Notes: generated from the letters alone by a model not told the origin. A stretch of 64,000 bases of DNA from Longimicrobiales bacterium (GCA_965249725.1 CBDFMQ010000002.1:2720001-2784000), one strand, 5' to 3'; positions 4,377 through 29,975 are shown, numbered from the stretch's first letter. Made by a program: numbers and translations.

Positions 4377-4379
4377 GGG

Positions 4380-4794: not shown

Positions 4795-5529
4795 GGCGAG
4801 GACCGGATACCCCGGCTCCGCGCGCGGGTGCGGCACACGACGGTGATCGTGCTACCGGCCGACGAGCGGATCCTCGACTTCGTGGCCGGCGACTCGGAGT
4901 ACTGGCACCTGACGGGCGCGGCCAACGTCGCGTACCTGAAGCCCCTGGCCGAGGACGCGGCGACGAACATCGCGCTCGTCTGCGAGTCGGGCCGCATCTA
5001 CTCGTTCCTGGTCGCCGAGCACGGCGAGGAGCCGCCACACCTGGTCGTCCGGGTCGATCCGGGCGCCGAGGCGGCGGGCGCATCCGGCGCTCCCGGGTTC
5101 GTCGCCCGGAGCGAGGTCGCGGCCTACCGTGAGATGGCGGCCCAAGCCGCCGATGCCGCGCGCTCGGCGCGCGAGGAGGCCGAGGCGGGCATCGTCGAAG
5201 CGCGTGAGCAGGCGCAAGCGGAGATCGAGGCGTTCCGGGCCTCCTATCCCGGCCGGCTCGCGTTCGAGTACCGGCTGGACGGGAAGGCGAAGGATCGTCC
5301 GTTCCTCATCGAGGCGATGTGGCACGACGGGCGGTTCACCTACATCCGCTCGCGCGCCCAGGAGTCGCCGGCGCTCTACGAACTGGAGGACGGCGAGCCG
5401 AGCCTGGTCGCGTTCGACCTCGCCGAGGACGGCCTCTACATCGCACGCCGCGTGCTGGGCGACGGGTGGCTCCGGATCGGCGACAAGCGGGCGCGCTGGC
5501 GGTTCACGCCCGGGGAAGCGCTCCGATGA
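4795..5529 (+). pseudogene. virB9: VirB9/TrbG-family T4SS protein, apparently 5'-truncated (no signal peptide)
   Basis: RHTTVIVLP.DERILDFVAGD..W, TNIALV..SGRIYSF, MWHDGRFTYI..ESPALY; frame open upstream only to a stop at 4678 with no hydrophobic leader. Confidence 0.65.
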
Positions 5530-6785: not shown

Positions 6786-6804
6786 CCCCAAGGAGAACAC
6801 CATC

Positions 6805-7707: not shown

Positions 7708-7725
7708 GCGAGGTGAGCGTTCGCA

Positions 7726-8715
7726 ATGCAACTCCCTCCGCAGTCCATCGATCCGAACGTTCCGGCGCAGATCCCCAACGACCAGCTCCAGGACTTCAAG
7801 AGCTTCCTGGACGTGGTGCTCGATACCGTGGTCGGCGCCGCCGCGCCCGACGTGCACACGCTCGGGCTCCAGCTTTGGGGCGGGCTCGCCGCCGTGATGG
7901 TCGCCTGGACGGGCCTCAAGATCGCGTTCAGCGGCACCTTCGAGCCGTGGGCCATCGTCAAGCTCGTCATCGGGATCGCGATCCCACGCACGCTGCTCCA
8001 CTACTACATCGTCCCGATCCCCGGGGTGGGGCTCACGTTCCCGGCCATGGTGGCGGGAGGGGGGATCTGGCTCCAGAACCTGTTCATCTCCGACGTGGTG
8101 TCGGCCGGCTACACCGAGATGACGGCGCTCGTCCAGGCGTATGCCGCGCACCTGGGCGGCGCGTGGTCGGGCGGGAACCTGCTGTCGGTCATGACCGCGG
8201 GCGTGAGCGTGCTCTTCTCCTCGTTCGTGACGCTGGTGATGGGCGCCTCGCTCGTGTTCTGCCTGCTGGCGCTCTTCTGCATCACCTATGCGCAGGTCAT
8301 CTGGGCGCAGGTCGCCATCGCGATCGTGATTCTCCTGGGTCCCGTGTTCATCGCGTTCCTCTTGTTCGAGCCGCTCGCGTTCCTGTTCTGGGGATGGTTC
8401 CGGTCCCTCATGGTCTACACGCTCTACGGCGTCGTGGCCGGCGCCGTGCTCCGCGTCTTCATGGGCGTCGGCATGGGCTACATCACGACCTACGCCGATG
8501 CGCTCATGGGCACCGGCACGGCCGATGCGGCCGAGCTCTGGCTCTGGGCCGTCGTGCTTCTCCCGCTCGTCGTGTGCGGCCTCATGGCCGGACTCAAGGT
8601 CGGCGAACTCGCCTCGATGCTCGTCTCCGGCTCCGGCTCCGCCGGGTCCGGGTTCGTCGCGCTCGCCATGCAGGGAGCCAGCCGCGCGGCGGCCCCCGCC
8701 AAGCCACCCGTCTGA
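7726..8715 (+). CDS. virB6: VirB6/TrbL polytopic membrane protein
   Basis: Multiple TMs, LLGPVFIAFLLF...F.GWF motif. Confidence 0.8.
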   Translation: MQLPPQSIDPNVPAQIPNDQLQDFKSFLDVVLDTVVGAAAPDVHTLGLQLWGGLAAVMVAWTGLKIAFSGTFEPWAIVKLVIGIAIPRTLLHYYIVPIPGVGLTFPAMVAGGGIWLQNLFISDVVSAGYTEMTALVQAYAAHLGGAWSGGNLLSVMTAGVSVLFSSFVTLVMGASLVFCLLALFCITYAQVIWAQVAIAIVILLGPVFIAFLLFEPLAFLFWGWFRSLMVYTLYGVVAGAVLRVFMGVGMGYITTYADALMGTGTADAAELWLWAVVLLPLVVCGLMAGLKVGELASMLVSGSGSAGSGFVALAMQGASRAAAPAKPPV

Positions 8716-8735
8716 AGCCCAAGGAGATGCCGCCA

Positions 8736-9404
8736 ATGAAACGAGACCGCCATGCGGGCCGCGAGTACGCCGAGATCTGGGCCGAGGCGGTCCACGCGAA
8801 CCGGAGGCTGCGGACGATCCTGATCTTCCTCTCGGCAAGCTGCGTCCTGCTCGCCGTGATCCTGCTGCGGATCGCGGGCGCCGAGCCGCCCAGGCCCATC
8901 GTGGTCCGCGTAGACGAGGTCGGCCGCGCCGAGGCGCTCGCGTACGAGGCCGCAACCGCCCAGGCCGATCCGCTCGATCCGACGACCAAGTACTTCCTCA
9001 ACAGGTTCGTCCACGACTTCCACTCGCGCCGCCGAGCCACCGTCGAGGAGCAGTGGACCCGGAGCCTTCGGTTCCTGTCGACCGAACTCGCGAACGCCGC
9101 GTTCCAGCGGGACGGCGCGGAGGTCGCAAGCGTGGCGGCCGGGACCGCCGACACCGAGCTCCAGGTCGAGCAGGTCGTGCTCCGCATCCATCCGTCTCCC
9201 GAGCCGCCCCACGGCGCGACGGCAGACTTCGACCTCGTGCACCTCCGGGACGGACAGGAGATCCGGCGCGAGCGCTGGTCGCTCACGCTCCGGTTCGAGT
9301 TCCTCAGGTCCATCCCGCGCGAGCTGGTCGTCCACAACCCGATGGGCATCCTCGTCACCTACCTACAGGCCGACCAAGCGCTCGTGACGGAGGACTCGAG
9401 GTGA
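8736..9404 (+). CDS. virB8: VirB8/TrbF T4SS protein
   Basis: RBS AAGGAG; single TM, PIVVRVDEVG, YFL.RFV, C-terminal NPMGILVT. Confidence 0.85.
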   Translation: MKRDRHAGREYAEIWAEAVHANRRLRTILIFLSASCVLLAVILLRIAGAEPPRPIVVRVDEVGRAEALAYEAATAQADPLDPTTKYFLNRFVHDFHSRRRATVEEQWTRSLRFLSTELANAAFQRDGAEVASVAAGTADTELQVEQVVLRIHPSPEPPHGATADFDLVHLRDGQEIRRERWSLTLRFEFLRSIPRELVVHNPMGILVTYLQADQALVTEDSR

Positions 9405-10318
9405 TCGCCCATCTGAAGGGACGCGAGAAGGCGCTCGAGTCCTTGGGCTGGACGGGACGCAGGGCCGAGTGGATCGCGCTCGTATGCCTGCACAGCGGCG
9501 TGTTCACCCGCGCGCAACTCACCGATGGGCTCCGCATCCACCGCCGCACGGCCCGCCGGTTCGTCCGAGCCATGATGGTTCGGAAGCTCGCGGTAGAGGA
9601 GACGCTGCACGGCCGGAAGGTCTGCCGGATCTTCGCCCGCCCGGTCTACCGGGCGCTCGGTGCCGAGCACATCCGCCATCGCAGGACCGCCTCCGAGGAA
9701 GTGCTCATGCGCCGTCTCCTCTCGCTCGACTACGTGATCGAGCAAACGGGCCTGCCGTGGCTCCCGACCGAGTCCGAAAAGGTAGCCGCGTTCGAGGCGC
9801 TCGGCATCGAGCGCAGCATCCTGCCCGTCCGCGTGTACCGGGGCGCCGCAGGCGAGACGCGGCGCTACTTCCCCCTCAAGCTGCCCGTCGCGCTTGACGG
9901 TCGGGGCGCGGTGTTCGTCTACGCCGATACGGGCCACGAGACCGCCGCGGGGCTCCGCTCCTGGGGCCACGCGCACCGCGGACTCTGGGGCGCGCTCAGG
10001 GAGCGGGGCCGGCCGGTAGAGGCCGTCGCCACCGTGCGCACCCAACCGGAACTTGCACGGGCTCGGAAGGTCCTCGGGCACTGGGCCGAGGCACCGACCG
10101 ATCCGCATCCCGCCGACCCGGCCCGCCGCGAGATCGCCCGGATCGAGCGGTCGATCCGCGACATGGACGACGCGGCGGTCGAGAGGTACGGCGGCCTCCA
10201 GGGCTGCTTGATACGGATCGTCGAACTCGAGGAACTGCTGCGATCCGCCCGCCCCGGAACGGCGATCGACGGGTTCGCCGCATGGCGTTCGAGCCGGCTT
10301 CGCGGGGGCCTGTTTTGA
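9401..10318 (+). CDS. Hypothetical protein, N-terminal winged-helix-like (possible relaxosome accessory)
   Basis: GTG start overlapping virB8 stop; HSGVFTRAQL..L....TARRFV HTH-like pattern. Confidence 0.6.
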   Translation: MIAHLKGREKALESLGWTGRRAEWIALVCLHSGVFTRAQLTDGLRIHRRTARRFVRAMMVRKLAVEETLHGRKVCRIFARPVYRALGAEHIRHRRTASEEVLMRRLLSLDYVIEQTGLPWLPTESEKVAAFEALGIERSILPVRVYRGAAGETRRYFPLKLPVALDGRGAVFVYADTGHETAAGLRSWGHAHRGLWGALRERGRPVEAVATVRTQPELARARKVLGHWAEAPTDPHPADPARREIARIERSIRDMDDAAVERYGGLQGCLIRIVELEELLRSARPGTAIDGFAAWRSSRLRGGLF

Positions 10319-10447
10319 GCGCCGGATCGCCGGGTGCCGGGGACCTGCGGCGAGTGCCCATCCGACATCGGGGGCGTGCGGACACGGAATCGCCCTTCCA
10401 AAGGACACGCCGCCGGTTGTGCATGTCGCTGGACGGCTTGCGGTTGC

Positions 10448-10589
10448 GCCACGGCCACCGGAGCGTGCGTGGCACGCGGGAGCCGGCGACCGTGGCCGGA
10501 GCGACCCCCCTCTTTGGATGCCTGGCGTGGCATCGGGGAGGATCGGCATGGGACACCCCCATGCCGTCCTCCGCGGGGGGTCGCTCCGG
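10448..10589. other. Nested inverted-repeat region, candidate oriT
   Basis: Perfect 15-bp IR CCGGAGCGACCCCCC (10496-10510) / GGGGGGTCGCTCCGG (10575-10589) enclosing two hairpins; further hairpin 10448-10496. Confidence 0.45.
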
Positions 10590-10622
10590 GCCAGCGATCC
10601 CTACGGGAAGGTTGTCGGACCG

Positions 10623-12662
10623 ATGAGGCCCTGGACGCTCGTCCTCATCGGCGTGGCCGTGGTCGCGGTCGCGGTCCGCGCCTTCCTCGAGCCGTTCCCG
10701 GACATCGGCGGGAACTCCGTGCTGGACCTGATCGCCTACCACGATCCGGGCCTGCATGCCGTGATTCGCGTCTGGTACTACGCGGCGCCAGCCGTCGCCT
10801 TGCTGCTCGCCGGCAGCGTCTGCCTCTCGGTCACGAGGGTCTGGCTCGAGCCGCGTACCCGGCGCGGCGCTCGCGGGAAGCTTCCCGCCTGGCCCACCTC
10901 GGCCAGGGACGAGGCGCCCTCGCTCGTGATCGGCGAACTGCATCATCCGACCGTGCCGCGCGAGAGCGAGCGGCCCTCCTGGCTCGTCGTCCCCGAGAAG
11001 GGGCTCTACACCGGCGTCCTCATCGTGGGTGCCGTCGGCACCGGCAAGACCACCGCCTGCATGTATCCGTTCGCCCGCCAGATCCTCTCCTGGCGGGCGG
11101 ACGATCCCGGCCGCAGGGCGGGCGCGCTGGTGCTCGAAGTCAAGGGGGATTTCTGCCACCAGGTCCGCGGCATCCTCGAGGACGCCGGCCGCGGGGACGA
11201 CTACCTCGAGATCGGGCTCGGCGGCTCCTGGCAGTGGAACCCGCTCGACGATCCGCTGCTCGATTCCTACTCGCTCGCCTATGGCGTCGCCTCCCTCATC
11301 AACCAGCTCTTCGGCAAGAGTAGAGAACCGTTCTGGCAACAGGCGTACACGAACCTCGTGCGCTGGATCGTGGAGCTGCACCGGCTCCTGCCGGGGGGCT
11401 GGGTCACGCTCCGGGACATCTACCGCTGCACCGTGGACGCGGAGTTGTTCGCGGGGAAGATCGGCGAGGCCCGCGAGATGGCCGACAGGATCTCTCCGGT
11501 GGACGCCGTCATCTCCAGCGACGACATGATCGCCCATGCGGAGGCGCTCAAGAAGTGGGACTGGGCGCCGGTGCCCGGCACTGAACAGGTGCGCTGCCGG
11601 ATGGACGCGGAGCTTCGGGCGCAGCTCGCGAAGCACGAAGTCGCATGCGAAGTGGAAGCGGCCGGGGGAGGCGCGGGCGGCGAGTTCAGGCAGCAGGTCG
11701 AGGCCATCGAGCGGTGGTACCTGCACGACTGGACGGTGCTCGACGCCAAGCTCCGCACCTCGATCGTCGAGGGCATCAGCGTCTTCCTCTCGCTGTTCGA
11801 CGAGCCGCAGGTCGCCGGCGTGTTCTGCCCGCCGCCACCGGCTGAGGAGGAGCCGCCGGCTGAAGCTACGCCGGACGAGAGCGACGACACCGAAGGCGCT
11901 GGCTATCCCGTGCCGGGGCTCCGGCGCCGACTGCCGCCGCTCGCCGATCTGATCGAAGACGGCAAGGTCCTCGCGCTCAACATGCCCGCTGGCGCGAACC
12001 CCGCGCTCGCCCGCGCCATCGGCGTGCTGCTCAAGAACGCGTGGATGCAGGCGCTGCTCCGGCGGCCCGCCGAGGCCGCGCGCCGGCCCGAACGCTACCT
12101 GCGGCCCGCCGTGTTCATCTGCGACGAATACCAGGCGTTCGCCACCGTCGGGCAGGACAACCCTTCGGGCGACGAGAAGGCGTTCGCGCTCACGCGCCAG
12201 TGCCGCTGCATACCGATCGTCGCCACGCAGTCGATCTCCTCGCTCCGCTCCGTGCTGCCCTCGGGCGAGGCTTGGCGCACGCTCGTCCAGACGCTCCGCA
12301 CCCGGATCTTCCTGTCGCTCTCCGATGAGGCGTCGGCGCGGGTCGCGTCCGAGATGTGCGGCACCGTCATGAAGACGCAGGCCTCCTACACGTTCACCGA
12401 GAACACGGGCCGGCCCGAGTTCTCGCTCCTCTCCGGACGCGCCGGAGGCGGACGCGGCACGATCGGCGCGAGCAAGTCGTTCCGCCAATCGAGGGAGCCG
12501 GTGTTCACGCCCCGCGAGTTCTCGCTGCTCGCCAACTACCAGGCGATCTGCCTGCCGTATGACGGGGTCGTGTCGCTCCCCGCGCGGCGCGTCTACCTCA
12601 AGCCCCACTACTTGCCGAAGGAGACCGGCTACTGGCGGCTCCGCGAGGAGGGCCGGATATGA
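10623..12662 (+). CDS. virD4: VirD4/TraD-like type IV coupling protein
   Basis: Two N-terminal TMs, Walker A GAVGTGKT, Walker B FICDEYQ, IVATQSISSL. Confidence 0.85.
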   Translation: MRPWTLVLIGVAVVAVAVRAFLEPFPDIGGNSVLDLIAYHDPGLHAVIRVWYYAAPAVALLLAGSVCLSVTRVWLEPRTRRGARGKLPAWPTSARDEAPSLVIGELHHPTVPRESERPSWLVVPEKGLYTGVLIVGAVGTGKTTACMYPFARQILSWRADDPGRRAGALVLEVKGDFCHQVRGILEDAGRGDDYLEIGLGGSWQWNPLDDPLLDSYSLAYGVASLINQLFGKSREPFWQQAYTNLVRWIVELHRLLPGGWVTLRDIYRCTVDAELFAGKIGEAREMADRISPVDAVISSDDMIAHAEALKKWDWAPVPGTEQVRCRMDAELRAQLAKHEVACEVEAAGGGAGGEFRQQVEAIERWYLHDWTVLDAKLRTSIVEGISVFLSLFDEPQVAGVFCPPPPAEEEPPAEATPDESDDTEGAGYPVPGLRRRLPPLADLIEDGKVLALNMPAGANPALARAIGVLLKNAWMQALLRRPAEAARRPERYLRPAVFICDEYQAFATVGQDNPSGDEKAFALTRQCRCIPIVATQSISSLRSVLPSGEAWRTLVQTLRTRIFLSLSDEASARVASEMCGTVMKTQASYTFTENTGRPEFSLLSGRAGGGRGTIGASKSFRQSREPVFTPREFSLLANYQAICLPYDGVVSLPARRVYLKPHYLPKETGYWRLREEGRI

Positions 12663-13669
12663 AGCGCGCGAGCGGCGTCGGCCACCTCACTCCGTTCCTC
12701 CCGGGCCTTGGAGCCCTGCTCGATGACCCGGAGGTCTCCGAGATCATGATCAACGGACCCGGCAACGTCTGGGTCGAGCGAGGGGGCCGCCTCGAGCCCC
12801 ACGAGGCGCCCGGGCTCACCGCCGCCTGGCTCCACCGCGCCGCGATCCACATCGCCCGGCCGCTCGGGCTCGATCCCGCCGCGAGGCCCATCCTCGACGC
12901 CCGGCTCAGCGACGGATCCCGGGTCGCCATCTGCACCCCGCCCGCGGCGCCCGAGGTCGCCATCACCATCCGCCGGTTCGGGGGCCGGGCGTTCTCGCCC
13001 GAGGACTTGGTGCGCATGGGCTCGCTGCCGGAGGCGGTCCTCCGGTCCGCCCGCACCACGCTTGCGTCCCGCAGGAACATCCTCGTCTCCGGGGGAACCG
13101 GCTCGGGCAAGACCACTCTGCTGAACGCGCTGATCGAACTGCTGCCCGAGGACGAGCGGATCGTCGCCATCGAGGACACGCTCGAACTCAGGATCGACCG
13201 CGCGAACTGCGTCCGCTTCGAGGCCGGGGCCATCGGCTCGGAAGCACCCGTATCGATCCGCGACCTGGTGCGGCACGCGCTCCGCCACCGCCCCGACCAC
13301 ATCGTCGTCGGCGAGGTCAGGGGCGCCGAGGCCGCCGACCTGCTCCAGGCGCTCAACACCGGGCACGGCGGATCGCTCACGACCGTGCACGCGAACAACG
13401 CGCGCTCCGCGCTCTCGCGCCTGGCGAGCTGCGCCATGCAGGCCGAGGGCGCGCTTCCCTGGGAGGTCACCTGCCGGGGCGTGGTCGACGGCATCTCGCT
13501 CGTGCTCCACATCACCCGGCAACGAGGCAGACGGTTCGTCGAGGAGGCCATCCAAGTCCAGGGCTACGACGCGGCCACCGGCCGCTGGATCACCGAACCG
13601 ATATCGGGCGGGGCGGCGAAGCCCCGGAAGAAGGAACAGACCCACACACCGAAGGAGGTGAACGCATGA
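12659..13669 (+). CDS. virB11: VirB11/CpaF-family ATPase
   Basis: EIMING, GGTGSGKTT, IEDTLEL, RHRPDHIVVGEVRG, NTGHGG..TTVHA. Confidence 0.9.
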   Translation: MKRASGVGHLTPFLPGLGALLDDPEVSEIMINGPGNVWVERGGRLEPHEAPGLTAAWLHRAAIHIARPLGLDPAARPILDARLSDGSRVAICTPPAAPEVAITIRRFGGRAFSPEDLVRMGSLPEAVLRSARTTLASRRNILVSGGTGSGKTTLLNALIELLPEDERIVAIEDTLELRIDRANCVRFEAGAIGSEAPVSIRDLVRHALRHRPDHIVVGEVRGAEAADLLQALNTGHGGSLTTVHANNARSALSRLASCAMQAEGALPWEVTCRGVVDGISLVLHITRQRGRRFVEEAIQVQGYDAATGRWITEPISGGAAKPRKKEQTHTPKEVNA

Positions 13670-13863
13670 CGGGCAACGACAGCACCATCCGCGTCGAGAC
13701 GTTCGAGGACTTCGACCGCGAGCTCGCGCGCGACGGCCGCGAGACGCTCGAGGTCCCGGCCTACCTGGCCGAGCAGTACGGCCTCTTCCGCGAGGAGGTC
13801 GGGAGCGAGGAAGACATCTTGGGCGCCGGCGGCGATCCGCACGGGGAGGTGGTGGACCGATGA
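13666..13863 (+). CDS. Small acidic hypothetical protein
   Basis: RBS AAGGAGGT; ATGA overlaps at both ends. Confidence 0.6.
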   Translation: MTGNDSTIRVETFEDFDRELARDGRETLEVPAYLAEQYGLFREEVGSEEDILGAGGDPHGEVVDR

Positions 13864-14888
13864 AGCACGACGAATACCACCGCAAGTTCGCCGACCGGGT
13901 CATCGAGCAGATCCGGCAGGGCACCGCGCCCTGGCAGAAGCCCTGGGCGCCGGGCGAGCGCGTGCTCCCCGCCAACGTGGACACCGACCGCTCCTATCGT
14001 GGCGGCAACAGCCTGCACCTCGCCGCCGTCCAGCAGGAGCGCGGCTATGGCGACGTGCGCTGGGGCACCTACCGCCAGATCCAGGCCCGGGGCGGACAGG
14101 TCAGGAAGGGCGAGACCGGCACCCGCATCCTCTCTTTTCAGGATCACAAGCGGACCCAAGTCACCGACGAGCGCGGACGGCCCAGGAGGGACGCCGAGGG
14201 CAAGCGCGTCTACCGCTACGAACGCCTCGAGGCGCCGTTCGTGCGCCAGTACACCGTGTTCAACGCCGAGCAGGCCGACGGGCTGCCCGCGCGGTCCACC
14301 CCGACGCCCGAGCCGCTCTGGAAGACCCACCAGGAGGCCGAACGGGTGCTCGAGGACAGCGGGGTCCCCGTCCGTCACGTGGCCGGCGACCGCGCCTTCT
14401 ACCACCTGAACCGCGACGAGATCATCCTCCCCGAACGGGTGCAGTTCCCCTCGGCCAACCACTACTACCAGACGGCGCTCCACGAGCTGGGGCACAGCAC
14501 CGGCCACCCGGAGCGGATGAACCGCGAGACGCTCGTCGAAGGGATCAAGACCGGGTTCGGCTCGCCCGACTACGCGAAGGAGGAACTGAGGGCCGAGATC
14601 AGCGCCATGATGACGGGCGAGCGCGTCGGCGTCGGGCACGACCCGAGCCGGGGCGCCGCCTACGTCGAGGGCTGGATCGCCGCGCTCGAGGAGGATCCCC
14701 GCGAGATCCGGCGCGCCGCGGCCGACGCGCAGAGGATCTCCGACTTCGTGCTCGTTCGGCACATCGAGCGCGAGGCCGCACGGGATCCCGTGGCCGTGGC
14801 CGCGTCCCGCACGCCCGGACCTCAGCGGACCCAAGTACCCGTGCCGCCGCTCCCGACGCCCGAACGCAGCTCCGGGCCGAGCCGCTGA
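13860..14888 (+). CDS. ardC: ArdC-family antirestriction protein (ssDNA-binding N domain + zincin-like MPTase domain)
   Basis: APWQKPW, YRGGN, WGTYRQIQ..GGQVRKGE, YTVFNAEQ, HELGHSTGH, YAKEELRAE. Confidence 0.9.
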   Translation: MKHDEYHRKFADRVIEQIRQGTAPWQKPWAPGERVLPANVDTDRSYRGGNSLHLAAVQQERGYGDVRWGTYRQIQARGGQVRKGETGTRILSFQDHKRTQVTDERGRPRRDAEGKRVYRYERLEAPFVRQYTVFNAEQADGLPARSTPTPEPLWKTHQEAERVLEDSGVPVRHVAGDRAFYHLNRDEIILPERVQFPSANHYYQTALHELGHSTGHPERMNRETLVEGIKTGFGSPDYAKEELRAEISAMMTGERVGVGHDPSRGAAYVEGWIAALEEDPREIRRAAADAQRISDFVLVRHIEREAARDPVAVAASRTPGPQRTQVPVPPLPTPERSSGPSR

Positions 14889-14894
14889 GGACCG

Positions 14895-15794
14895 ATGAGA
14901 GGTAGGGAGATGTTCGACCGCACGGTCGAGGAGGACCCCCGTTCCGCCGCGCCACCCAGCCGCGAGAAGCATCACATGCGAAACGGCCATCGTCGAGAAT
15001 ACGCCGCGAGCCGGGACGGCGGGTCCATCTCCTTCACCGAACGGTGCGCCCGCGGACTTGCCGACATCGGCGTCTACGGCGCCGTCTCCTACCGCGACCT
15101 CGCCGAAGCCCGCTTCGGCGGCCATCCCCACACCACCCGGCGGGCCGTGAACGCCTGGATCCGGGAAGGGATCGTCGCGGAGACCCGGGCCACCGGACCC
15201 GGGGGCAACCCGTTCAAGATCCTGACCCTTACGCGCAAAGGCGTGGCCGACGCCCGCGAGCGGGCCGCCGAATGGGGGATGGATCCCGGCCAGGAAATGC
15301 GGTACGCACACACCCGGCCCGCCCAAGCCGCGCACGACACCGCCGTCTATCGCGCTTGCAGGGAGGAGCAGCAACGCCTCCACGCAGAGGGCGCCACCGT
15401 GCGGCGCATCCGCCTCGACGCCGAACTCAAGAGCGCCGTCGCGCGCGGGAGCGAGGCCGCGCGGAAGAAGGACGGGAAGCGGGCCGCCGACGCCGAACGG
15501 CACAGGATCGCCCGCGAGCTCGGCCTCCCCCTCGACGACGAGGGCCGCGTGCTCCACCCGGATGCGCAGATCGAGTACACCGATGCCGAAGGCCGGACCG
15601 GCCGCGTCAACATCGAGGCCGTCTCCGGCAACTACCGCGAACCGGCAGTCCGCGCCAAGGCCGCCGCCGGGTTCGCGCTCCACGCCAACGGGCCGGCGGC
15701 CGGGAAACTCCTCGGCAAGCTCGGCCTGGGCGGCGACGGCGGATCCTGGCTGCGCGGACCGGCCGACCGCGACCCGACCGCCGTCGAACTCTGA
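14895..15794 (+). CDS. wHTH + PD-(D/E)XK-like protein; candidate Replic_Relax/MOB_C-type relaxase
   Basis: N-terminal wHTH-like region (LTLTRKG wing), HD, then HPDAQIEY...VNIEAVSGNY...K. Confidence 0.5.
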   Translation: MRGREMFDRTVEEDPRSAAPPSREKHHMRNGHRREYAASRDGGSISFTERCARGLADIGVYGAVSYRDLAEARFGGHPHTTRRAVNAWIREGIVAETRATGPGGNPFKILTLTRKGVADARERAAEWGMDPGQEMRYAHTRPAQAAHDTAVYRACREEQQRLHAEGATVRRIRLDAELKSAVARGSEAARKKDGKRAADAERHRIARELGLPLDDEGRVLHPDAQIEYTDAEGRTGRVNIEAVSGNYREPAVRAKAAAGFALHANGPAAGKLLGKLGLGGDGGSWLRGPADRDPTAVEL

Positions 15795-15815
15795 CGACCC
15801 GGAGGACTTTAGCCC

Positions 15816-16130
15816 ATGCAGCCTTGGAAGATCAGCGCGGGACTCACCGCCGCAATCGCCGGGACCACCTTCCTCCTCGGCGGCTCCCGCCTCGAATACT
15901 TGTCGCCGTTCTGGCCGGTCATCCTCGCCGATCACGGCGTCCTGCTCTCCCTCCACCTCGCGTTCGCGCTCGCAACCGTCGCGGCCGCCATCTACGCCGT
16001 CGCGCGCGCCACCGGGCTCGCCGACCTCGGGCGCCGCGTCGATCTCGCCGAACGGTCCGTGCGGCGCGGCCAGGGGGATACGGGCCTCACCGAAGCGCTC
16101 CGCAGGGACGCCGAAGGCGACTGGGACTGA
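15816..16130 (+). CDS. Small membrane protein
   Basis: RBS GGAGG; two hydrophobic segments. Confidence 0.65.
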   Translation: MQPWKISAGLTAAIAGTTFLLGGSRLEYLSPFWPVILADHGVLLSLHLAFALATVAAAIYAVARATGLADLGRRVDLAERSVRRGQGDTGLTEALRRDAEGDWD

Positions 16131-16136
16131 ACGCGC

Positions 16137-16526
16137 ATGAGTGACCGAACGTCCGTCGAGACACTGCCCGCCAACTGGCGCAGGCACGCCAAGGCGCTCC
16201 GGCGCTACGGGGGCGAAACTCCGGCCACCGCGCTCGAAAGCTGCGCCGCCGAACTCGAAGCCACGCTCGTCGAGAGGGACGAGACCACCTTCTCGCTGGT
16301 CGAGGCCGCCCATGAGAGCGGCTACTCCTCCGACCACCTCGGGCGCTTGGTGCGAGACGGCAAGATCCCCAACGCCGGAAGGCCCGGCGCGCCCAAGATC
16401 GCCCGCAGCCACCTGCCACGGAAGGCACAAGCACCAGCCGAGCCGCCACTGGCGGAGCAGTCACGCCGACGCGACGTTTCAAACGTGCAGATCGTGCAGT
16501 CCATCATCGAAAAAGGAATCGAATGA
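16137..16526 (+). CDS. Excisionase-like HTH protein
   Basis: FSLVEAAHESGYSSDHLGRLVRDGKIP (HTH_17-like), directly upstream of and overlapping the integrase. Confidence 0.7.
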   Translation: MSDRTSVETLPANWRRHAKALRRYGGETPATALESCAAELEATLVERDETTFSLVEAAHESGYSSDHLGRLVRDGKIPNAGRPGAPKIARSHLPRKAQAPAEPPLAEQSRRRDVSNVQIVQSIIEKGIE

Positions 16527-17686
16527 TGGCACGCACGAAACGAAGCCAGCGCAGCTACGCCGCTGGCGAATGGGGCCGGAACCGGGTGAGGGTCTTTCCC
16601 GATCCCAAGACCGGCTTGTTCCAGATCGAGTGGCGCGACAACGGGCGCAGGCTGAGCAGGTCGCTGAAGCACCGCGACTGGAGGCAGGCGAGGAGGCAGG
16701 CGGACGAGTTCGCCGCAGGATTCGCCGGGCCGGAGCTGAACGGCAAGAAGAACGCCGAGCCCGAGCCGCTCACGCTGAAGACGCTTTTTGACATCTACGG
16801 TGAAGAGGTGACGCCCACCAAGCGTGGGCAGTCGCGGCTGCACGACAGGGCCGCGATGAGGATGTTCCTCGGGTGCTTCGGCAGGGACCGGAAGCCCGCA
16901 ACGCTCTCCCAGCGCGACTGGGACCGGTTCATCCGGGAGCGGCGGGCGGGCAGGGTTGGCCCGAGCGGCAAACCCGTGTCCGACCGGATGATCGAACGGG
17001 ACCTGAAGTTCCTGCTCGCGGTCCTCAACTGGGCCGTGAAGTCGAGGGACGAGCGGGGTGAACTGCTCCTCGGCTCGAACCCGCTCAAGGGCCTGAAGAC
17101 GCCCACGGAGAAGAACCCGACACGGGTGATGCTTACCGAGGAAGAATACGGGGTCCTGCTCCACGTGTCTCTGGAGATGGACTGGCGCTTTCACGTTGCT
17201 CTGGTCCTCGCCCACGAGACAGGACACCGCATCGGCGCCATCCGTCAGCTTCAATGGTCGGACATCGACCTTGAATGCGGAGTGGTGCGGTGGCGCGCAG
17301 AGCACGACAAGTCGGGCTACGAGCACCGGACGCCGGTCACCACCGAGGCGCTCGCCGCCTTGGAGGAGGCGCGAAAGAGGAACCCCGTGACCGGACACAC
17401 TCTCGTGCTGCCCTCGCCGCAGGATCCGTCGAGGTGCGTGGGCTCCTGTCAGGCGCGCGGCTGGTGGCAAAAAGCGGAGCGGCTCGCGGGGCTTGAACCT
17501 AAGCGTGGGAGGGGCTGGCACTCCCTGAGACGGAAGTTCGCCTCCGACCTCATGGACCAGCCGCTCAAGGTGCTCTGCGAACTCGGCGGCTGGAAGGAGG
17601 CCAAGACGGTGCTGCACTGCTACCAGCGGGCCGACGAGGCACAGCTCAGGAAGGCTCTGGAGAGCCGACGCAGAGTTCGCGCCTGA
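16523..17686 (+). CDS. Tyrosine recombinase/integrase
   Basis: Catalytic set: ETGHRIG (R), K, HSLRR (HxxR), LGGW, HCY (Y). Confidence 0.92.
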   Translation: MMARTKRSQRSYAAGEWGRNRVRVFPDPKTGLFQIEWRDNGRRLSRSLKHRDWRQARRQADEFAAGFAGPELNGKKNAEPEPLTLKTLFDIYGEEVTPTKRGQSRLHDRAAMRMFLGCFGRDRKPATLSQRDWDRFIRERRAGRVGPSGKPVSDRMIERDLKFLLAVLNWAVKSRDERGELLLGSNPLKGLKTPTEKNPTRVMLTEEEYGVLLHVSLEMDWRFHVALVLAHETGHRIGAIRQLQWSDIDLECGVVRWRAEHDKSGYEHRTPVTTEALAALEEARKRNPVTGHTLVLPSPQDPSRCVGSCQARGWWQKAERLAGLEPKRGRGWHSLRRKFASDLMDQPLKVLCELGGWKEAKTVLHCYQRADEAQLRKALESRRRVRA

Positions 17687-24418: not shown

Positions 24419-24862
24419 ATGAGCCGGTCCCTCAACAAGGTCATGCTCATCGGTAACGTCGGAAGTGAGCCTGAGATTCGCGCCACGTCGTCGGGCAGTC
24501 GCGTAGCAAAGCTGTCACTGGCGACCAACCGACAGTGGAAAGACGGCTCCGGGCAGCAGCAGGAGAAGACCGAATGGCACCGGCTCACCTTCTTCGGTCG
24601 GCTCGTCGACATCGTGGAGCAGTGGGTGAAGAAGGGTGATCGCCTGTACGCCGAGGGGCGCGTCGAGTACTCGCAGACCGAGAAAGACGGCCAAACCCGC
24701 TACTGGACCGACATCGTCGTCTCAGAGATGGTGATGTTGGGTTCTACGGGTGGCGGTGGTGGCGGCGGCAGCGGTGGTGGTGGTGGTGGGTTCGGAGGCG
24801 CGCCCCCGAGCCAGGCACCGTCCGCTCCGATCGCGGAACCCGACGACGACCTTCCGTTCTGA
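24419..24862 (+). CDS. ssb: Single-stranded DNA-binding protein
   Basis: SLNKVMLIGN, TEWHR, Gly-rich linker, DDDLPF tail. Confidence 0.97.
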   Translation: MSRSLNKVMLIGNVGSEPEIRATSSGSRVAKLSLATNRQWKDGSGQQQEKTEWHRLTFFGRLVDIVEQWVKKGDRLYAEGRVEYSQTEKDGQTRYWTDIVVSEMVMLGSTGGGGGGGSGGGGGGFGGAPPSQAPSAPIAEPDDDLPF

Positions 24863-24887: not shown

Positions 24888-25238
24888 CTAAGAGTCGAGC
24901 GCCTCTTTCAGATCGCTCTCCCAAAGGCCGAGGAAATGAGCCTCGTACTGCGCGGGGTTGCGGGCGTAGTCCTCTGCCCAAGCGTCATAAGGCGGAAGAG
25001 CCAAGCGACGTGAAACACCCGACGTAGCCAGGTGGACCATTCGCTCATACGTGGGCTCGCCCTGGCCCCCCTCCAAGCGATGGGCCTCTTCTGCGAGCAC
25101 ATAGATCTCGTCGGGCGACAATAGGAGCAGGTGCTCGGCTACCTGAGCCGAACAGTACTCCAGGTACTTCGCCCGCAAGACCACGTCCGGCTCGTCTTCC
25201 TGTTCCTGAGGGGGGGTCTTGGGATCGGCGTCACTCAC
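24888..25238 (-). CDS. Hypothetical protein, stand-alone domain A
   Basis: LRAKYLEYCSAQ...LPPYDAWAEDY, shared with 26037 and 28129 ORFs; RBS GGAGG. Confidence 0.75.
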   Translation of the reverse strand: MSDADPKTPPQEQEDEPDVVLRAKYLEYCSAQVAEHLLLLSPDEIYVLAEEAHRLEGGQGEPTYERMVHLATSGVSRRLALPPYDAWAEDYARNPAQYEAHFLGLWESDLKEALDS

Positions 25239-25458
25239 GCCCGGCCTCCCGACTGACTCTCAGGCCCCTGTTGCGTACCGCCCTTCGGCACGCAAATCCT
25301 GGCCCGTCTTATGGTTACGTATTAGTGGAGGCGCTGCGTAGGGTCAAGGCCCGGGTGAAATACGTCGCAGTCGAAACAGGCTTGGGGCGGGGAGTCGCGA
25401 GGCTGCGTGTGAGACGCCGCAACGAATGGGGGAGACGCTGAAGGAGGAGGGCGACGCC

Positions 25459-25662
25459 CTAGGTGGCGAGTTGCGTCTGAGCGTCGCCGTCGTCGGGACT
25501 CTCACCCCGTTCACGCAAGTGACGATAGATCGATCGGCGGGTGAGTCCGTACAGCACGACCCGGCTCAGAAACTCCGGATCCGTCTTCTGGACTTCTTCC
25601 GCCTGCTCCGCAATATCACGAGGAAGTTGGACCTTGAGTTGAACGGAGCAGGTTTCCCACAT
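25459..25662 (-). CDS. Small hypothetical protein, possibly ribbon-helix-helix DNA binder
   Basis: RBS GAGAGGT; VQLKVQLP strand followed by two predicted helices; near-consensus upstream promoter. Confidence 0.65.
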   Translation of the reverse strand: MWETCSVQLKVQLPRDIAEQAEEVQKTDPEFLSRVVLYGLTRRSIYRHLRERGESPDDGDAQTQLAT

Positions 25663-25782
25663 GCGCGTACCTCTCCCACGATCTGATGGTTGAAATTTCT
25701 TGGAATGTTAGCAGGGATCGGATGATCCCACTGCAATCCAATGTCGTCTGGAAGGGCGAATTTATTTCTTCGAGGCGATCCC

Positions 25783-25811
25783 AGTATACAGGTCGTTTTC
25801 GATGGACGCAA
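25783..25811 (-). promoter_or_regulatory. sigma70-type promoter for the 67-aa protein
   Basis: TTGCGT-17 bp-TATACT on the minus strand in an AT-rich intergenic region. Confidence 0.65.
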
Positions 25812-26036
25812 GCCTTTTCCAGAGTTGTCGTGTGCCCAACGTAATCTTGTAACTTGTTGCACCACAAAGACTTATGAATGCCCATTTTTGGACAAAACCG
25901 GCTGTTCCTCACCACGCCACGGCAACGTTGTTTCCTGATTCCCCGATTTGGAAAACCAGCAACGATAGGCACTTACGGAATTGAGGTCACCGGAAATCTG
26001 CCCCAGGACTGGTGTTCATTTTTTGCAAAAAATGAA

Positions 26037-26678
26037 CTACGGCAGAGTGGACCTGAGGAAGGCGGTGAGTGTGGCCGAAGTGAACGACAGAAACCGGTCG
26101 CGGAGGTCTTGGAGCTCATCCTCGCAGAAGATGTCGCTGGTCCTGACGGAGGATTCAGCGGAGCCTCGATGGAAGCGAACGTACCCTCGCCAGAGGTCCT
26201 CGTCTCTGTAGACTTCGAGCGAGGCCTGCCAACGACGCGAGGCGTGCTCGACCTCCCTGACTTCGACCGTGACCGGCTCGGAGGGCTCGCCGGCATGGGG
26301 GTACGGCGCGCCCGCCTTGAGGTGGGCGAGGCGATGGGATTCGTAGTCCACCAACCAAACGTCGAACGACGGTAGTGGCAGCAGCTCGCGGCAGAAGCGA
26401 TGGAGCGTGGCCATGGGGTCCTTCGATTCGTGCAGACCGTGGTCCATCGCCCACTCTCTCGCCTCTCGATAGAGCGGGCGCACACCTTCGCGCGGCATCA
26501 GTTCCACGAGCCCTGCGGCTTGCCGCTGACAATACTCCGCGTACCTCCGCCTCAACGCCGAGGCGGTCGCGGGACGACCTGCCGCAGCCGGGGAACCCGA
26601 CGTCGGCGTCGGGGGACGCGACGTCGCACTCCGGCGCCCCGCTCTCACTCCTCGAATACGGTCCCGTTGCATCGCCAT
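26037..26678 (-). CDS. Hypothetical protein, domains A-B
   Basis: LRRRYAEYCQRQ...LPSFDVWLVDY then WRGYVRF...VRTSDIFCE. Confidence 0.75.
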   Translation of the reverse strand: MAMQRDRIRGVRAGRRSATSRPPTPTSGSPAAAGRPATASALRRRYAEYCQRQAAGLVELMPREGVRPLYREAREWAMDHGLHESKDPMATLHRFCRELLPLPSFDVWLVDYESHRLAHLKAGAPYPHAGEPSEPVTVEVREVEHASRRWQASLEVYRDEDLWRGYVRFHRGSAESSVRTSDIFCEDELQDLRDRFLSFTSATLTAFLRSTLP

Positions 26679-26698
26679 CGGTCGCGTCGGCCGCGGGC

Positions 26699-27610
26699 TC
26701 AGTGCACCGTACCACCGCCGACGGCGGCAGCATGGGTCCGAAGGGGCTCCGCCTTTACACGCCGCTCGCGGACGAACAGTCGGGCCAACGTCTCACGCGA
26801 GCCGAACGTGGACAGATGGTGCTCGACCGCCTTGAACCGACCCGGCTCGAAGCGGGCCAGGAGGCGGCCCAAGCCACGGCGGATGGTCACGAGCTCCTCC
26901 CGGGCCTCGGCCAAGGTCACCGGCAGGTTGAGGCGGACCTGGTATTGCACCGAGCCGCCCTCGTGGCCTTCCGTGATTCGCAGAACTTCACTATGGGGAA
27001 ACGCCTCGAGGACCGCCGCCTCTAGGTTCGCGTCCGGCTCGGGGGAAGGAGCACGGAAGATCAGCGCGTTGGCGTCGTAGTCCAGATAGGCTCGCGTGAT
27101 CCGGTGCTCCCCCGAGACGATCCGCACCGACGTGCCCTCGTGGAAGTCCAGGTCTCGACAGATGTCACGAAAACCGATTCGGAGGATGGAGGGACGGGTC
27201 AACGGACCGTATCCCACGCGACCGAGCAGGCTCAGAGCCATCTGGAAGCAGTACGCCCCCAGGGGGCCTCCATGCTCGTCCGCCTCACCGACGGCACGCT
27301 CCCTGATGAGGCTGTTCACATGCTCCAGCGTCGGCTCGTAAACCCAGTCCAGCACCACCAGCTCGGAGCTGAGGTCGAGCATCTTGACCGTGGAACTCCC
27401 GAGGTCCAGCACCTCTGCCGACGACGCAAAGCGGCCCTCCAGCACCAATGCCAACCCGATATCCTGAATCCTCCCACCAGGAGGATCGATCTCATGGAGA
27501 TCCCGGTACTGAACCACAGCCCGAGTGAGCGGAAGCTCGCAAATTCCGGGCACATCGGCCATCGCCTCCGGCCGCGCCTCAGACTGCAGTGAAAGGCTCG
27601 TCGCGTTCAT
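26699..27610 (-). CDS. Hypothetical protein
   Basis: RBS GAGGGAG before ATG 27610; normal composition; operonic with 26037 ORF. Confidence 0.7.
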   Translation of the reverse strand: MNATSLSLQSEARPEAMADVPGICELPLTRAVVQYRDLHEIDPPGGRIQDIGLALVLEGRFASSAEVLDLGSSTVKMLDLSSELVVLDWVYEPTLEHVNSLIRERAVGEADEHGGPLGAYCFQMALSLLGRVGYGPLTRPSILRIGFRDICRDLDFHEGTSVRIVSGEHRITRAYLDYDANALIFRAPSPEPDANLEAAVLEAFPHSEVLRITEGHEGGSVQYQVRLNLPVTLAEAREELVTIRRGLGRLLARFEPGRFKAVEHHLSTFGSRETLARLFVRERRVKAEPLRTHAAAVGGGTVH

Positions 27611-27696
27611 CGTGTCTCCCTCTGACGTAAAACGCCCCCAGTGCCGGCAGGCCGGCCCACGAGGGCGATTCCGCGAGTCTGGGGCATACGACGCCC

Positions 27697-27726
27697 TTGA
27701 CACTCGTTCGACGATCTTCTTACTTT
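27697..27726 (+). promoter_or_regulatory. sigma70-type promoter of putative sRNA-1
   Basis: TTGACA-18 bp-TACTTT. Confidence 0.55.
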
Positions 27727-27732
27727 TCCCGT

Positions 27733-27810
27733 AGCGAACGAGGAAAAGCGGGTCGCCACCCGTGTGTTCCAGCGAGAGTCTCGGTGCCAGCCGGGACTCT
27801 CAATTTTTTT
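27733..27810 (+). ncRNA. Putative small RNA 1 (~78 nt)
   Basis: Between the promoter above and terminator GAGAGTCTCGG-TGCCAG-CCGGGACTCTC-AATTTTTTT; no ORF. Confidence 0.45.
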
Positions 27811-27856
27811 CTGGGTATGTCTCGCCCGACCGGCACCACATCGTGGCTGACCGGGC

Positions 27857-27951
27857 AAAAAAACCCGGCATTCTCGCCGGGTTTCGTCTGCGCTCCCAAC
27901 GGCCATCATTGACCGTAGGATGCGGTTTTTCGGGGCTTTCCATGCCCCGAC
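27857..27951 (-). ncRNA. Putative small RNA 2 (~95 nt)
   Basis: Hairpin TCGGGGC-ATGGAAA-GCCCCGA, second long stem, terminator ACCCGGC-GAGAAT-GCCGGGT-TTTTTT. Confidence 0.5.
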
Positions 27952-27957
27952 GTTCCC

Positions 27958-27987
27958 ACGATAACAATATGTTTACCATTCTGGCAA
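27958..27987 (-). promoter_or_regulatory. sigma70-type promoter of putative sRNA-2 (extended -10)
   Basis: TTGCCA-18 bp-TATCGT with TGn extension. Confidence 0.5.
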
Positions 27988-28128
27988 GACGTTTCTCACC
28001 GTGGGCAGAACCGCGGCGTTCGTCTTCCTTGCCCCCAATGACGCGCGCGGACATCTTGGGAATCGTCACGCTGCGCACGGCTGCTCGGCAATCCTCCGTG
28101 CCCCTGAGCACCTCACACGATAGAGAAC

Positions 28129-28821
28129 TTGGCCGAACACGCCTTAATCGATCGCGCGCGCCAACGTTCGCTCGGGTTTCTGGAATCGGACGGTGAGAAC
28201 TGGGCCTGCTTTCTCATCACCTTCCAGGGCCGGGACAGCCAGTGGCATGGCCACCTTTCGTTCCGCCCCCGTGACAGCGAAGGCGAGGTGGACGAGGTCC
28301 GCACGGCGGACATCTTCATCGAGGCCTGCGAGTCGGATATCGACCAGAAGGCGAGAGGGCTCGGCCGACCGCTCATTCGGGCACTGTTTTCCTCTGCTCT
28401 CCACGCCCAGAAGCGGGACGAGGCAGAGTCGCCCAAGCTGCGCAAATGGTTTCGGACACTGCTCTCGGAGAACTCCCAGGAAATGGCGGCGGCAGCGGGA
28501 GCCTGCCTTGAGGATCCGTCCCAAGCCGATGTTGCGGAGCTTCGATCCCTGTACGATTCCTACCGGCTGGATCAGGTCTGTCACTTCATCGCGCTGCTCA
28601 AGCCCGATGACTTCGAGTCCGCGGTGGATCGCATCCTCGAAGGGCAGGCCGTCGACTTCGGGGCGAAGGATCGGCTCCAGCTTGCCATGATGGTCGTGGA
28701 GTACATCGAGAGCCGCATCCCCATGCCGCCTTTCGAGGTCTGGACGGCCGATTTCCTGGCCAACCGGGAGGAGTACCTCCTCTACGCCCACACGCTCCAT
28801 CGCGAGGGAAGACTTCCCTAG
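28129..28821 (+). CDS. Hypothetical protein, domains B-A
   Basis: WHGHLSF...VRTADIFIE then [12 protein letters not shown]...[11 protein letters not shown]. Confidence 0.75.
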
Positions 28822-28886
28822 TCGACCTACCTCCACTATTTTTTTGGCTCTTGGCTTTGGAGTTTCACCAGAGGAGAGCACTTCTC

Positions 28887-29084
28887 TTGGAAGTAACCAT
28901 TCAGGACAACGAGAGCCTCGAGCGAGCGCTCCGGCGGTTCAAACGTAAAGTACAGAGATCGGGACTCTACTCGGAGCTCCGTAAGCGTCGCTTCTACGAG
29001 AAGCCCAGTGCCCAGCGGAAGCGGAAGCGCGAGGCCGCGATCCGACGAGAGCGCCGGCGCCAGCGACGGGGCAAGCGCCCCTAA
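28887..29084 (+). CDS. rpsU: 30S ribosomal protein S21
   Basis: [14 protein letters not shown]...RFYEKPS; TTG start after RBS GAGGAG. Confidence 0.95.
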
Positions 29085-29183: not shown

Positions 29184-29975
29184 TTACGCAGCCCGGACGA
29201 AGAGAGGACCCAGGTCAGCCCAGCGGCTGAGGTAGTCCGGGGTAAGCAGCTCGCGACTGATCCGCGTCAGTACGTGCAGACGTCCCTCGAGAGTCGAGGC
29301 GTCCGATAGCGTCAGGCCCGTCAGCGAACGGAACGCCCGGCAGAGGTTGCCGTTGCTCGAGTACCCCAAGTGAAACGCCACCCTGGCCGTGGTCATATCG
29401 TGCCGGTTGAGCAGTTCGCTCGCACAGAGAGCCCGCAGCCGAGTCGTATACGCGAACGGCGACGGCAGGTCTCGCCGCCGGAAACGCGCCTTGAGTGCCC
29501 CTGATGTGAGGCCGACCGCCTCCGCCACCTCGTCGAGGCGAGCGTACTTGGACGGAAACTCCAATGTTCTCCGTCCGAGGGCGCTCAGTTCAGGCGGCAG
29601 AGAATGCCCCGCAGCCCGGCCGAGGTCCCGTAGGAGCCCTTCCACCCAATCGATCGGAAGCGCCGCCTCGTTGATCAGATGGCGCATCCTGGCCGGAGCC
29701 GTATCGATCCGCTGAATCGCTATGGCCGACCGCGAGCGGCGCAGTCCCGGGAGCTCGAGCGGCGCCAGTTCCAGCACCGGAAGATGGGAGCCGGCGGCTC
29801 TGAGCAGCCCCTCCACGCCCCCCTCCACGCCGCGTTCGATGACGGAAACCCTCGGGAAACCCGACTGGAGGGCCGCCGACACATCTTCCGCACGCCAAAA
29901 CACGTCCTCGGCGGGGAAGGCTGCCCTCCGGACGGAATGGAGCAGGAACGGGTTCTCAACGGCTGCGAGGATCAT
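29184..29975 (-). CDS. AraC-family transcriptional regulator
   Basis: LDEVAEAVGLT..AL...F, VAFHLGYSS.GNLCRAFRSLTG. Confidence 0.8.
   Translation of the reverse strand: MILAAVENPFLLHSVRRAAFPAEDVFWRAEDVSAALQSGFPRVSVIERGVEGGVEGLLRAAGSHLPVLELAPLELPGLRRSRSAIAIQRIDTAPARMRHLINEAALPIDWVEGLLRDLGRAAGHSLPPELSALGRRTLEFPSKYARLDEVAEAVGLTSGALKARFRRRDLPSPFAYTTRLRALCASELLNRHDMTTARVAFHLGYSSNGNLCRAFRSLTGLTLSDASTLEGRLHVLTRISRELLTPDYLSRWADLGPLFVRAA

Follow-up and report, generated by a model that had tools for sequence, protein, structure and literature searches.

Architecture of the locus

A cluster of small genes matching no named protein family lies in a stretch of 64,000 nucleotides from the genome of a Longimicrobiales bacterium (Gemmatimonadota; GCA_965249725.1, CBDFMQ010000002.1:2720001-2784000), hereafter the window, whose coordinates are used throughout. 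The cluster, positions 24888 to 28821, encodes (i) a stand-alone helical domain, A; (ii) AB, a fusion of A with a second domain, B; (iii) BA, a fusion of the same two domains in the opposite order; (iv) R, a small protein that resembles ribbon-helix-helix (RHH) regulators by pattern; and (v) U303, a 303-residue orphan; it also contains a predicted small RNA (sRNA) and a candidate operator. The invariant unit of the cluster is the pair formed by R and stand-alone A, and not the fusions. Family labels f1 to f12 are codes, f1 being the family of the window. The features are as follows:

24419..24862, plus strand: ssb, convergent flank and a neighbour by position alone (named by reading the sequence rather than by a family scan)
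24888..25238, minus strand: stand-alone domain A protein, 116 residues, all-helical, predicted partner of R
25459..25662, minus strand: R, 67-residue strand-helix-helix protein, RHH-like by pattern, single copy
25783..25811, minus strand: predicted sigma70-type promoter of R, TTGCGT-17-TATACT (sequence and pattern counts)
25850..25874, no strand: 25-bp inverted repeat, candidate operator, consensus TAAGTCGTTG-N5-CAACnACTTA (pattern counts and genome scoring)
25894..25909, minus strand: conserved site GGAACANNTGRWT, at 20-21 nt from the inverted repeat on its upstream side
26015..26036, no strand: AT-rich palindrome around TTTTTGCAAAAA, directly past the AB stop
26037..26678, minus strand: AB, with domain A at 26313-26564 and domain B at 26040-26279
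26699..27610, minus strand: U303, predicted SH3/KOW/MazF-like barrel followed by an alpha/beta C-terminal domain
27697..27726, plus strand: predicted sRNA promoter, TTGACA-18-TACTTT (TTGACA pattern among sRNA matches)
27732..27812, plus strand: predicted sRNA of about 80 nt with two GCCA-loop hairpins, the second a terminator with a U tail
27857..27881, minus strand: terminator-like hairpin within the leader of the U303-AB transcript, which runs leftward (from sequence; in a minority of relatives)
27958..27987, minus strand: predicted leftward promoter, TTGCCA-18-TATCGT with extended TG (conserved core)
28129..28821, plus strand: BA, with domain B at 28153-28410 and domain A at 28528-28818, divergent from U303-AB
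28851..29084, plus strand: rpsU, flank and positional neighbour only (name read as for ssb)

Homology and order of domains A and B

The first-pass annotation had described three clustered proteins built from two domains in shuffled order, and the three open reading frames are indeed found where it placed them, contain the motifs it quoted and display the architectures A, A-B and B-A, with B C-terminal in 26037-26678 and N-terminal in 28129-28821. Pairwise BLASTP links are weak (A with AB, E 3e-5; A with BA, E 3e-7; AB with BA, E 2e-5 over domain A and 2e-3 over domain B). The homology of the domains across the frames is settled by profile alignment with hhalign, the check the annotation had proposed: with profiles built from relatives, stand-alone A matches the A halves of AB and BA at 98.6% and 98.1%, the two A halves match each other at 99.1% and the two B halves at 98.8%, against at most 2.5% in three A-versus-B crosses and at most 4.0% in 20 column shuffles for each of the four pairs. 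All seven segments compared with two same-genus genomes are under purifying selection (dN/dS 0.01-0.13), with values of 0.01-0.08 for R and stand-alone A.

That no named family could be recognised also held: none reaches the cut-off among the cluster proteins in Pfam, NCBIfam, PADLOC or PHROGs, and PDB sequence searches with these proteins returned chance-level rows only, dismissed as such (histone doublets, E 0.28-0.92; DnaA domain I, E 0.21; RSV nucleoprotein, E 0.5). In the ESM Atlas, BA led only to unnamed Gemmatimonadota clusters and A to no usable named match. A 443-residue A-containing protein was set aside as apparently chimeric, and the name "GNAT" on one BA orthologue looks like a mis-annotation.

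The window's genome contains exactly three A domains, all within the cluster, and a third B, which stands alone on contig C1 (C1:294194-294436; locus L105). The latter is flanked by a transglutaminase-like gene and an ABC-2 permease, and its orthologues lie near what we take to be a small AbrB-like gene and a cytochrome c/molybdopterin operon. The proteins had been called diverged, permuted paralogues; their diverged homology stands, and circular permutation is neither supported nor rejected by the trees. In midpoint-rooted trees of 49 (A) and 40 (B) rows picked from loci, the A halves of AB and BA group together at 90/96, the B halves are ungrouped (grouping p-AU 0.32), and the trees favour neither circular permutation nor independent fusions.

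A and B are portable modules, since B occurs as stand-alone paralogues, R, A and B form a consecutive run in f7 and A is fused to a TehB-like protein in other families; AB and BA are order-level fusions beside the R-A core. The TehB-like fusion occurs in f4, f5 and f8, the families in which R was not found, as a protein of about 265 residues whose N-terminus matches A at 97% by hhalign and whose C-terminal 160 residues or so match TehB at E 1.6e-11 (PDB 2i6g, 2xva). This C-terminal match is what it shares with the TehB-like class I S-adenosylmethionine (SAM) methyltransferases; it differs from TehB in the extra N-terminal A domain and in a degenerate motif I, V-x-G-A as compared with D-L-G-C-G. 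A search of the window's genome found no A-TehB fusion. The A-TehB genes (L116-L127, L134, L184-L194) lie near rho-ruvX-mltG-rlmI and are often followed by a conserved peptide of about 53 residues; small Lys/Arg/Ala-rich, histone-like open reading frames are convergent with two of them (L118:9427-9651 and L124:6138-6326).

Predicted structures

The model of BA (predicted local distance difference test, pLDDT, 71.6; predicted template modelling score, pTM, 0.48) comprises (i) domain B, a three-stranded meander with a short fourth strand and two helices, and (ii) domain A, made of five helices. Fold searches with this model, which covered mainly residues 1-97 and barely domain A, gave no Foldseek match at E of 0.001 or below and a best Z of 5.8, to unrelated propellers. 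The antiparallel meander followed by helices predicted for B is faintly like that of the WGR domain (Z 4.3-4.5) and of PUR, PC4 and Whirly proteins (Z 3.2-4.1; PURA Z 4.1, root-mean-square deviation, rmsd, 2.7 over 49 aligned residues; Borrelia Pur-alpha Z 3.5; T5 PC4 Z 3.3), all values lying within the search background and without sequence support. Pfam WGR (PF05406) was matched in 0 of 151 phylum genomes, with 2 of 14 controls positive, and in 0 of 44 B sequences.

U303 is modelled with confidence (pLDDT 86) as an SH3/KOW/MazF-like barrel and an alpha/beta domain. For the barrel, alignment to MazF/Kid gives Z values of 5.3-6.4 (with rmsd 2.8-4.2 across 72-81 residues), and KOW/SH3 folds score equally (Ski2, 6.3; Ube2O, 6.0), whereas the C-terminal domain reaches Z 6.8 to MotA-CTD or type III chaperone-like alpha-beta folds, with Foldseek E values of 0.01-0.08 to chaperone/YbjN folds. 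The likeness of the barrel to MazF/Kid/CcdB and KOW/SH3 folds is thus a matter of Z values up to 6.4, none of them above unrelated folds; U303 has no fold match at Z 8 and no sequence match.

Conservation and phyletic range

An old, lineage-specific and co-localised module had been suggested, and comparison of relatives bears this out: all 20 f1 loci chosen for an AB match keep the order A-R-AB-U303-BA unbroken, and ssb and rpsU are both visible in 18 of them. Among 81 loci fetched through R, 41 display the complete string rpsU-BA-U303-AB-R-A-ssb and seven clearly do not contain AB; most of the others appear shortened by contig ends or by the 4-kb flank. Retention between ssb and rpsU is limited by lineage, the position being lost in f7, f6 and f2. 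The f1 neighbourhood comprises ssb, recF, dciA and gyrB, and gene order from gyrB to a thiolase gene is broadly conserved there. In f3 the usual arrangement is A-R with a divergent BA (five loci); in f7 all five loci fetched have R, A and a stand-alone B consecutively on the same strand among unrelated neighbours; and in the single f6 and f2 loci (L132 and L133) R-A adjoins LigD, with Ku also present in L132. U303 stays next to R or A where AB is lost.

Phyletic counts were made over the same 301 phylum genomes for each protein. Domain B is present in 195 (47/48 in f1, 6/6 in f3, 113/125 in f4, 22/23 in f7, 1/70 in f5), domain A in 117, R in 76 (46/48 in f1, 5/6 in f3, 22/23 in f7, 1/1 in f6, 1/4 in f2) and U303 in 37, essentially f1 and f3; R was found in none of the f4, f5 and f8 genomes of this set. 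The B profile retrieved 253 proteins among 1.84 billion representatives, and from this yield and the phyletic counts the A and B families are narrow. Among the 150 matches listed of the 253, B is stand-alone, N-terminal or C-terminal, the longest protein has 333 residues and no fusion to a known domain occurs. Named relatives belong to the Gemmatimonadota, the nearest to the Longimicrobiales; one 2-kb contig among 80 is labelled Thermoanaerobaculia. BA was absent from the plasmid and phage sequence sets searched. An IMG/VR contig (L208) carries a relative of R at 72% identity and may represent host flank.

Stand-alone B occurs as a pair of paralogues in many f4 genomes: the first lies beside rho, with a lone HisKA peptide encoded directly downstream, and the second precedes a gene that we take to be glnA. 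The HisKA (DHp)-only protein, of about 60 residues, follows the stand-alone B beside rho directly in about ten f4 loci (for example L121:16892-17074, L123:6775-6954 and L124:13720-13908) and is also seen near rho in loci without B.

The R-A core

R is closely linked to stand-alone A: the two lie within 1 kb of each other in 71 of the 76 genomes with R, A follows R in 75 of 76 further loci with enough sequence, and the pair persists in f7, f6 and f2, where all flanks change. Mean column identity of R over 35 relatives is 80%, and the alignment displays, by pattern, an N-terminal strand with alternating hydrophobic residues and then two helices; within the complex model only, R reaches pLDDT 74-76. 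The gap between the two genes is 220 nt and holds a conserved TTG element. A strict promoter pattern was found between R and A in 0 of 79 loci; from its sequence context, stand-alone A may have its own promoter.

A model of two R chains with one A scored 0.53, compared with 0.01 for the best control, with contacts agreeing at 84% or more and a partner pLDDT of at least 73. The mark thereby reached was also reached by 116 of 157 solved pairs and by 2 of 215 mismatched pairs, and, at scores of 0.60 or below, by 18 solved pairs and both mismatches. Binding of an R dimer to A is accordingly a prediction with weak support.

DNA elements upstream of R

Alignment of 35 regions upstream of R disclosed four conserved elements, counted in 80 loci: (i) a sigma70-type promoter pattern in 79, with 5.9 expected from shuffles; (ii) the 25-bp inverted repeat, in 42 by a strict pattern and 0.0 in shuffles; (iii) the GGAACANNTGRWT site, containing GGAAC, in 73, 0.2 in shuffles and largely f1-specific; and (iv) the TTTTTGCAAAAA site, in 44, 0.1 in shuffles, its 12-mer core having a single occurrence in the genome. 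In every case the repeat spans 25 bp and lies 37-42 nt from the -35 element, at 39 nt in 31 of the 42 loci and at 38 nt in the window. It is the unique strong site of the window's genome (32.4 bits, compared with 16.4 for the next-best site). Of 16 more distant loci, drawn from f1, f2, f3, f6 and f7, 13 have the repeat 182-259 nt upstream of R (p of 0.01 or below against mononucleotide shuffles), and R-A plus the repeat travel together into different contexts across these five families. Genome scoring made no regulon evident for the repeat or for the GGAAC site. A further candidate, TTTTCCACA, stands ahead of R in a few relatives and was dismissed as not conserved; likewise, the AT-rich region upstream of R was rejected as an oriC, the skew minimum lying near 2.90-2.95 Mb on contig C3 and no consensus DnaA box being present.

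A transcription-control module as the preferred reading

Domain homology, purifying selection, the adjacency of R and A, and the association of the palindrome with R at a fixed distance from -35 are firm ground. On these parts we tentatively prefer, at somewhat less than an even chance, the reading of the cluster as a module for transcription control that is inherited vertically and to which AB and BA would add lineage-specific adaptors. The co-localised module that the first-pass annotation proposed stands, its regulatory role being putative. The single-copy gene set would act as a transcription switch in which an R dimer is predicted to bind stand-alone A and would act at the inverted repeat upstream of R's own promoter, the palindrome being the putative R site. 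The position of the repeat, near -88, would suit activation or DNA architecture rather than simple occlusion. A, which is also fused to a degenerate SAM-methyltransferase fold, would serve as a portable docking or signalling module; AB and BA would couple an A-type module to domain B and would compete with stand-alone A or relay to it; and the GCCA-loop sRNA and U303 would represent a later added control layer.

The closest known counterparts are RHH regulators with a partner, which share the Arc/MetJ/CopG fold and include pairs of the FitA-FitB and CcdA-CcdB type. The likeness consists of a small gene, strand-helix-helix by pattern, that precedes a small partner gene, a palindrome further upstream and a 2:1 complex that is predicted here, again with weak support. 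The locus differs from them in that R has no RHH sequence match, the partner A belongs to no known family, the two genes are 220 nt apart, the site lies upstream of the promoter rather than over it, inheritance is vertical and single-copy, and the partner domain is reused in fusions. By analogy, the locus would work like an autoregulatory RHH-partner pair, yet R matches no RHH profile at cut-off.

Several observations weigh against the preferred reading. For R itself, no RHH family reaches cut-off (Pfam Arc is touched by 1 of 35 members, E 0.12) and no PDB sequence match was found; RHH proteins usually carry a G-x-S/T turn between helices A and B, and the corresponding turn of R is D-P. In 5 of 76 genomes R and A are apart or show no linkage (one case falls at a contig end), and because of the 220-nt gap and the conserved TTG element their co-transcription is putative. 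The repeat is undetected upstream of R in 3 of the 16 distant loci (L053, L057, L128), there is no visible regulon because each genome has one strong repeat site, and the motifs derive from 35 loci that partly overlap the 80 counted, kin among them not being independent. Both half-sites of the repeat contain the core CAAnnnnTTR, which is that of IHF, so that a global factor could be the binder; an IHF-type identity would for the same reason fit several of the alternatives. Finally, the BA model shows no fixed A-B orientation (pTM 0.48), and B has a function independent of R, because it occurs without R in 113 of 125 f4 genomes.

The predicted small RNA and an RNA-level alternative

Two candidate sRNAs had been noted at the locus. 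The one at 27732-27812 on the plus strand is well supported by sequence, while the other amounts to the minus-strand leader, from promoter to terminator, of the U303-AB transcript. The former folds with a z of -3.9 into two hairpins with a U tail, is single-copy in the window's genome and has no Rfam family at gathering score. Its predicted promoter reads TTGACA-17/18-TAnnnT in relatives, with TTGACA and a spacer of 17-18 nt in 15 of the 16 matches listed, the sixteenth being unrelated. GCCA is invariant in both loops and often occurs once more at the 5' end. Each of the 14 positions of the terminator stem is paired in 31-37 of 37 sequences, with many compensatory changes, and covariation over 11 model pairs (0.175) exceeds all 500 shuffles and all slides, in an alignment that was fitted to the model structure and in which some rows are training sequences. 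The sRNA occurs in 34 of 67 loci spanning the U303-BA interval, and in 3 of 151 class genomes under strict filters with 30 candidates scored per genome; AB is present in 34 of 34 loci with it and in 26 of 33 without. Over the same 67 loci, the leftward promoter core is found in 48 and the terminator-like hairpin of the leader (term1 pattern) in 12. UGGCA, complementary to the sRNA loop, is present in the leader of 15 of 27 sRNA loci, where 7.3 would be expected, and of 2 of the 21 other loci, against an expected 3.0; as a possible pairing site it is a lead only. Some f3 loci contain sRNA-like units in tandem, each of them apparently under a separate promoter: L051:8029-9367 has three by eye, one of which passes the model, and L195:7272-7646 has two that pass.

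These data bear on an RNA-level switch, in which B or the KOW-like barrel of U303 would bind the GCCA hairpins, the sRNA would titrate this binder and terminators in the U303-AB leader would be its targets. The model would be CsrA/RsmA with the sponge RNAs CsrB, RsmY and RsmZ, whose loops carry GGA motifs. Likeness lies in a short RNA with its own predicted promoter, a repeated loop motif and an intrinsic terminator; here the motif is GCCA rather than GGA, in only two to three copies, and the RNA has no Rfam match. Pfam CsrA was matched by none of the cluster proteins, the search for it having covered these proteins and not the rest of the genome. The invariant loops, the covarying stem, the constant company of AB, the faint resemblance of B to single-strand binders of the PUR, PC4 and Whirly kind, the stand-alone B adjoining rho in f4 and the excess of UGGCA would all fit such a switch. 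We nevertheless consider it rather unlikely: the sRNA is far more restricted than B, the Z values of B fall below the search background, the UGGCA complement is absent from the window's own leader and the covariation depends on the alignment described above.

Further alternatives

Co-localisation might exist without any shared mechanism, local duplication and fusion having produced paralogues that are kept by inertia and have unrelated jobs. For each of AB, BA, U303 and the sRNA there are lineages that have lost it, B paralogues at other sites stand among unrelated genes, and f1 conserves its gene order in this region anyway. Such a reading is doubtful, since the R-A pair carries its repeat along into changed surroundings, f7 has R, A and B in one unbroken gene run, both fusion orders of A and B exist, and U303 remains by R or A after loss of AB.

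A domesticated toxin-antitoxin system, in which R would be the RHH antitoxin, A or U303 the toxin, the repeat the operator and the sRNA a type III-like antitoxin, is improbable. It would account for a small RHH-like gene upstream of one of about 100 residues, for the palindrome and the weakly supported complex model, and for the alignment of the U303 barrel to MazF/Kid, but KOW/SH3 folds score level with MazF. Type II systems are tight bicistrons with an operator over the promoter and a patchy, mobile distribution; here the genes are 220 nt apart, the repeat lies 37-42 nt upstream of -35 without promoter overlap, and the R-A pair is vertically inherited in single copy (46/48 in f1, 22/23 in f7) under the strong constraint described above, with BA on no plasmid or phage searched. 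No type II toxin family was matched in Pfam or PADLOC by the cluster proteins, domain A being barely covered by the fold searches. Type III systems of the ToxIN kind have pseudoknot repeats in tandem, placed upstream of a Kid/MazF-fold toxin gene and co-transcribed with it, in contrast to simple hairpins on the strand opposite to U303.

An accessory module for replication or DNA repair acting with SSB, RecF, DciA and gyrase, suggested by the f1 neighbours, by LigD in the one f6 and the one f2 locus, accompanied by Ku in one of them, and by the faint WGR-like fold of B, is highly improbable, given that ssb is convergent, the linkage is lost in f7, the locus lies about 165 kb from the GC-skew minimum and from the nearest consensus DnaA-box pair, Pfam WGR is absent from the 151 phylum genomes and the DnaA domain I match is at chance level.

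Other regions of the window

Past rpsU, an AraC-type regulator is encoded at 29184-29975 on the minus strand and is present only in some family members. Downstream of gyrB, positions 3913-17683 comprise a block resembling an integrative conjugative element, with genes for VirB9/CagX, TrbI/VirB10, TrbL/VirB6, VirB8, a TraG/TrwB-type ATPase and a T2SSE/VirB11-type ATPase, as well as ArdC, a tyrosine integrase and a HicB-like gene. At 48689-49867 on the plus strand, a 4Fe-4S protein gives a weak reductive-dehalogenase Pfam match (E 4.6e-7) and could be a QueG-like or dehalogenase-like enzyme.

Significance

Nothing on the locus was found in the literature, as far as sources were accessible in part, and supplementary gene tables could list these proteins; the accessible portion of PMC11596202 contains nothing on it, its mention of RHH being a reference title. 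The locus offers two unnamed domain families, one of which, B, is present in almost two-thirds of the phylum genomes searched, a candidate transcription factor that is highly conserved and has a putative operator, and a candidate sRNA without an Rfam family. It also represents a clean natural case of two domains that occur alone, adjacent and fused in both orders. Gemmatimonadota are widespread and barely cultured, and each of the parts can be tested without a culture of the host, either in vitro or in E. coli.

At its broadest, and as a long shot, the locus may belong to a Gemmatimonadota-wide signalling toolkit of two new domains, in which A docks a conserved RHH-like transcription factor to interchangeable inputs (B or, in other families, a catalytically dead SAM-binding domain), B is a new RNA-binding fold and the sRNA is its sponge. 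If true, domain shuffling would have connected that factor directly to a circuit that resembles Csr but arose independently.

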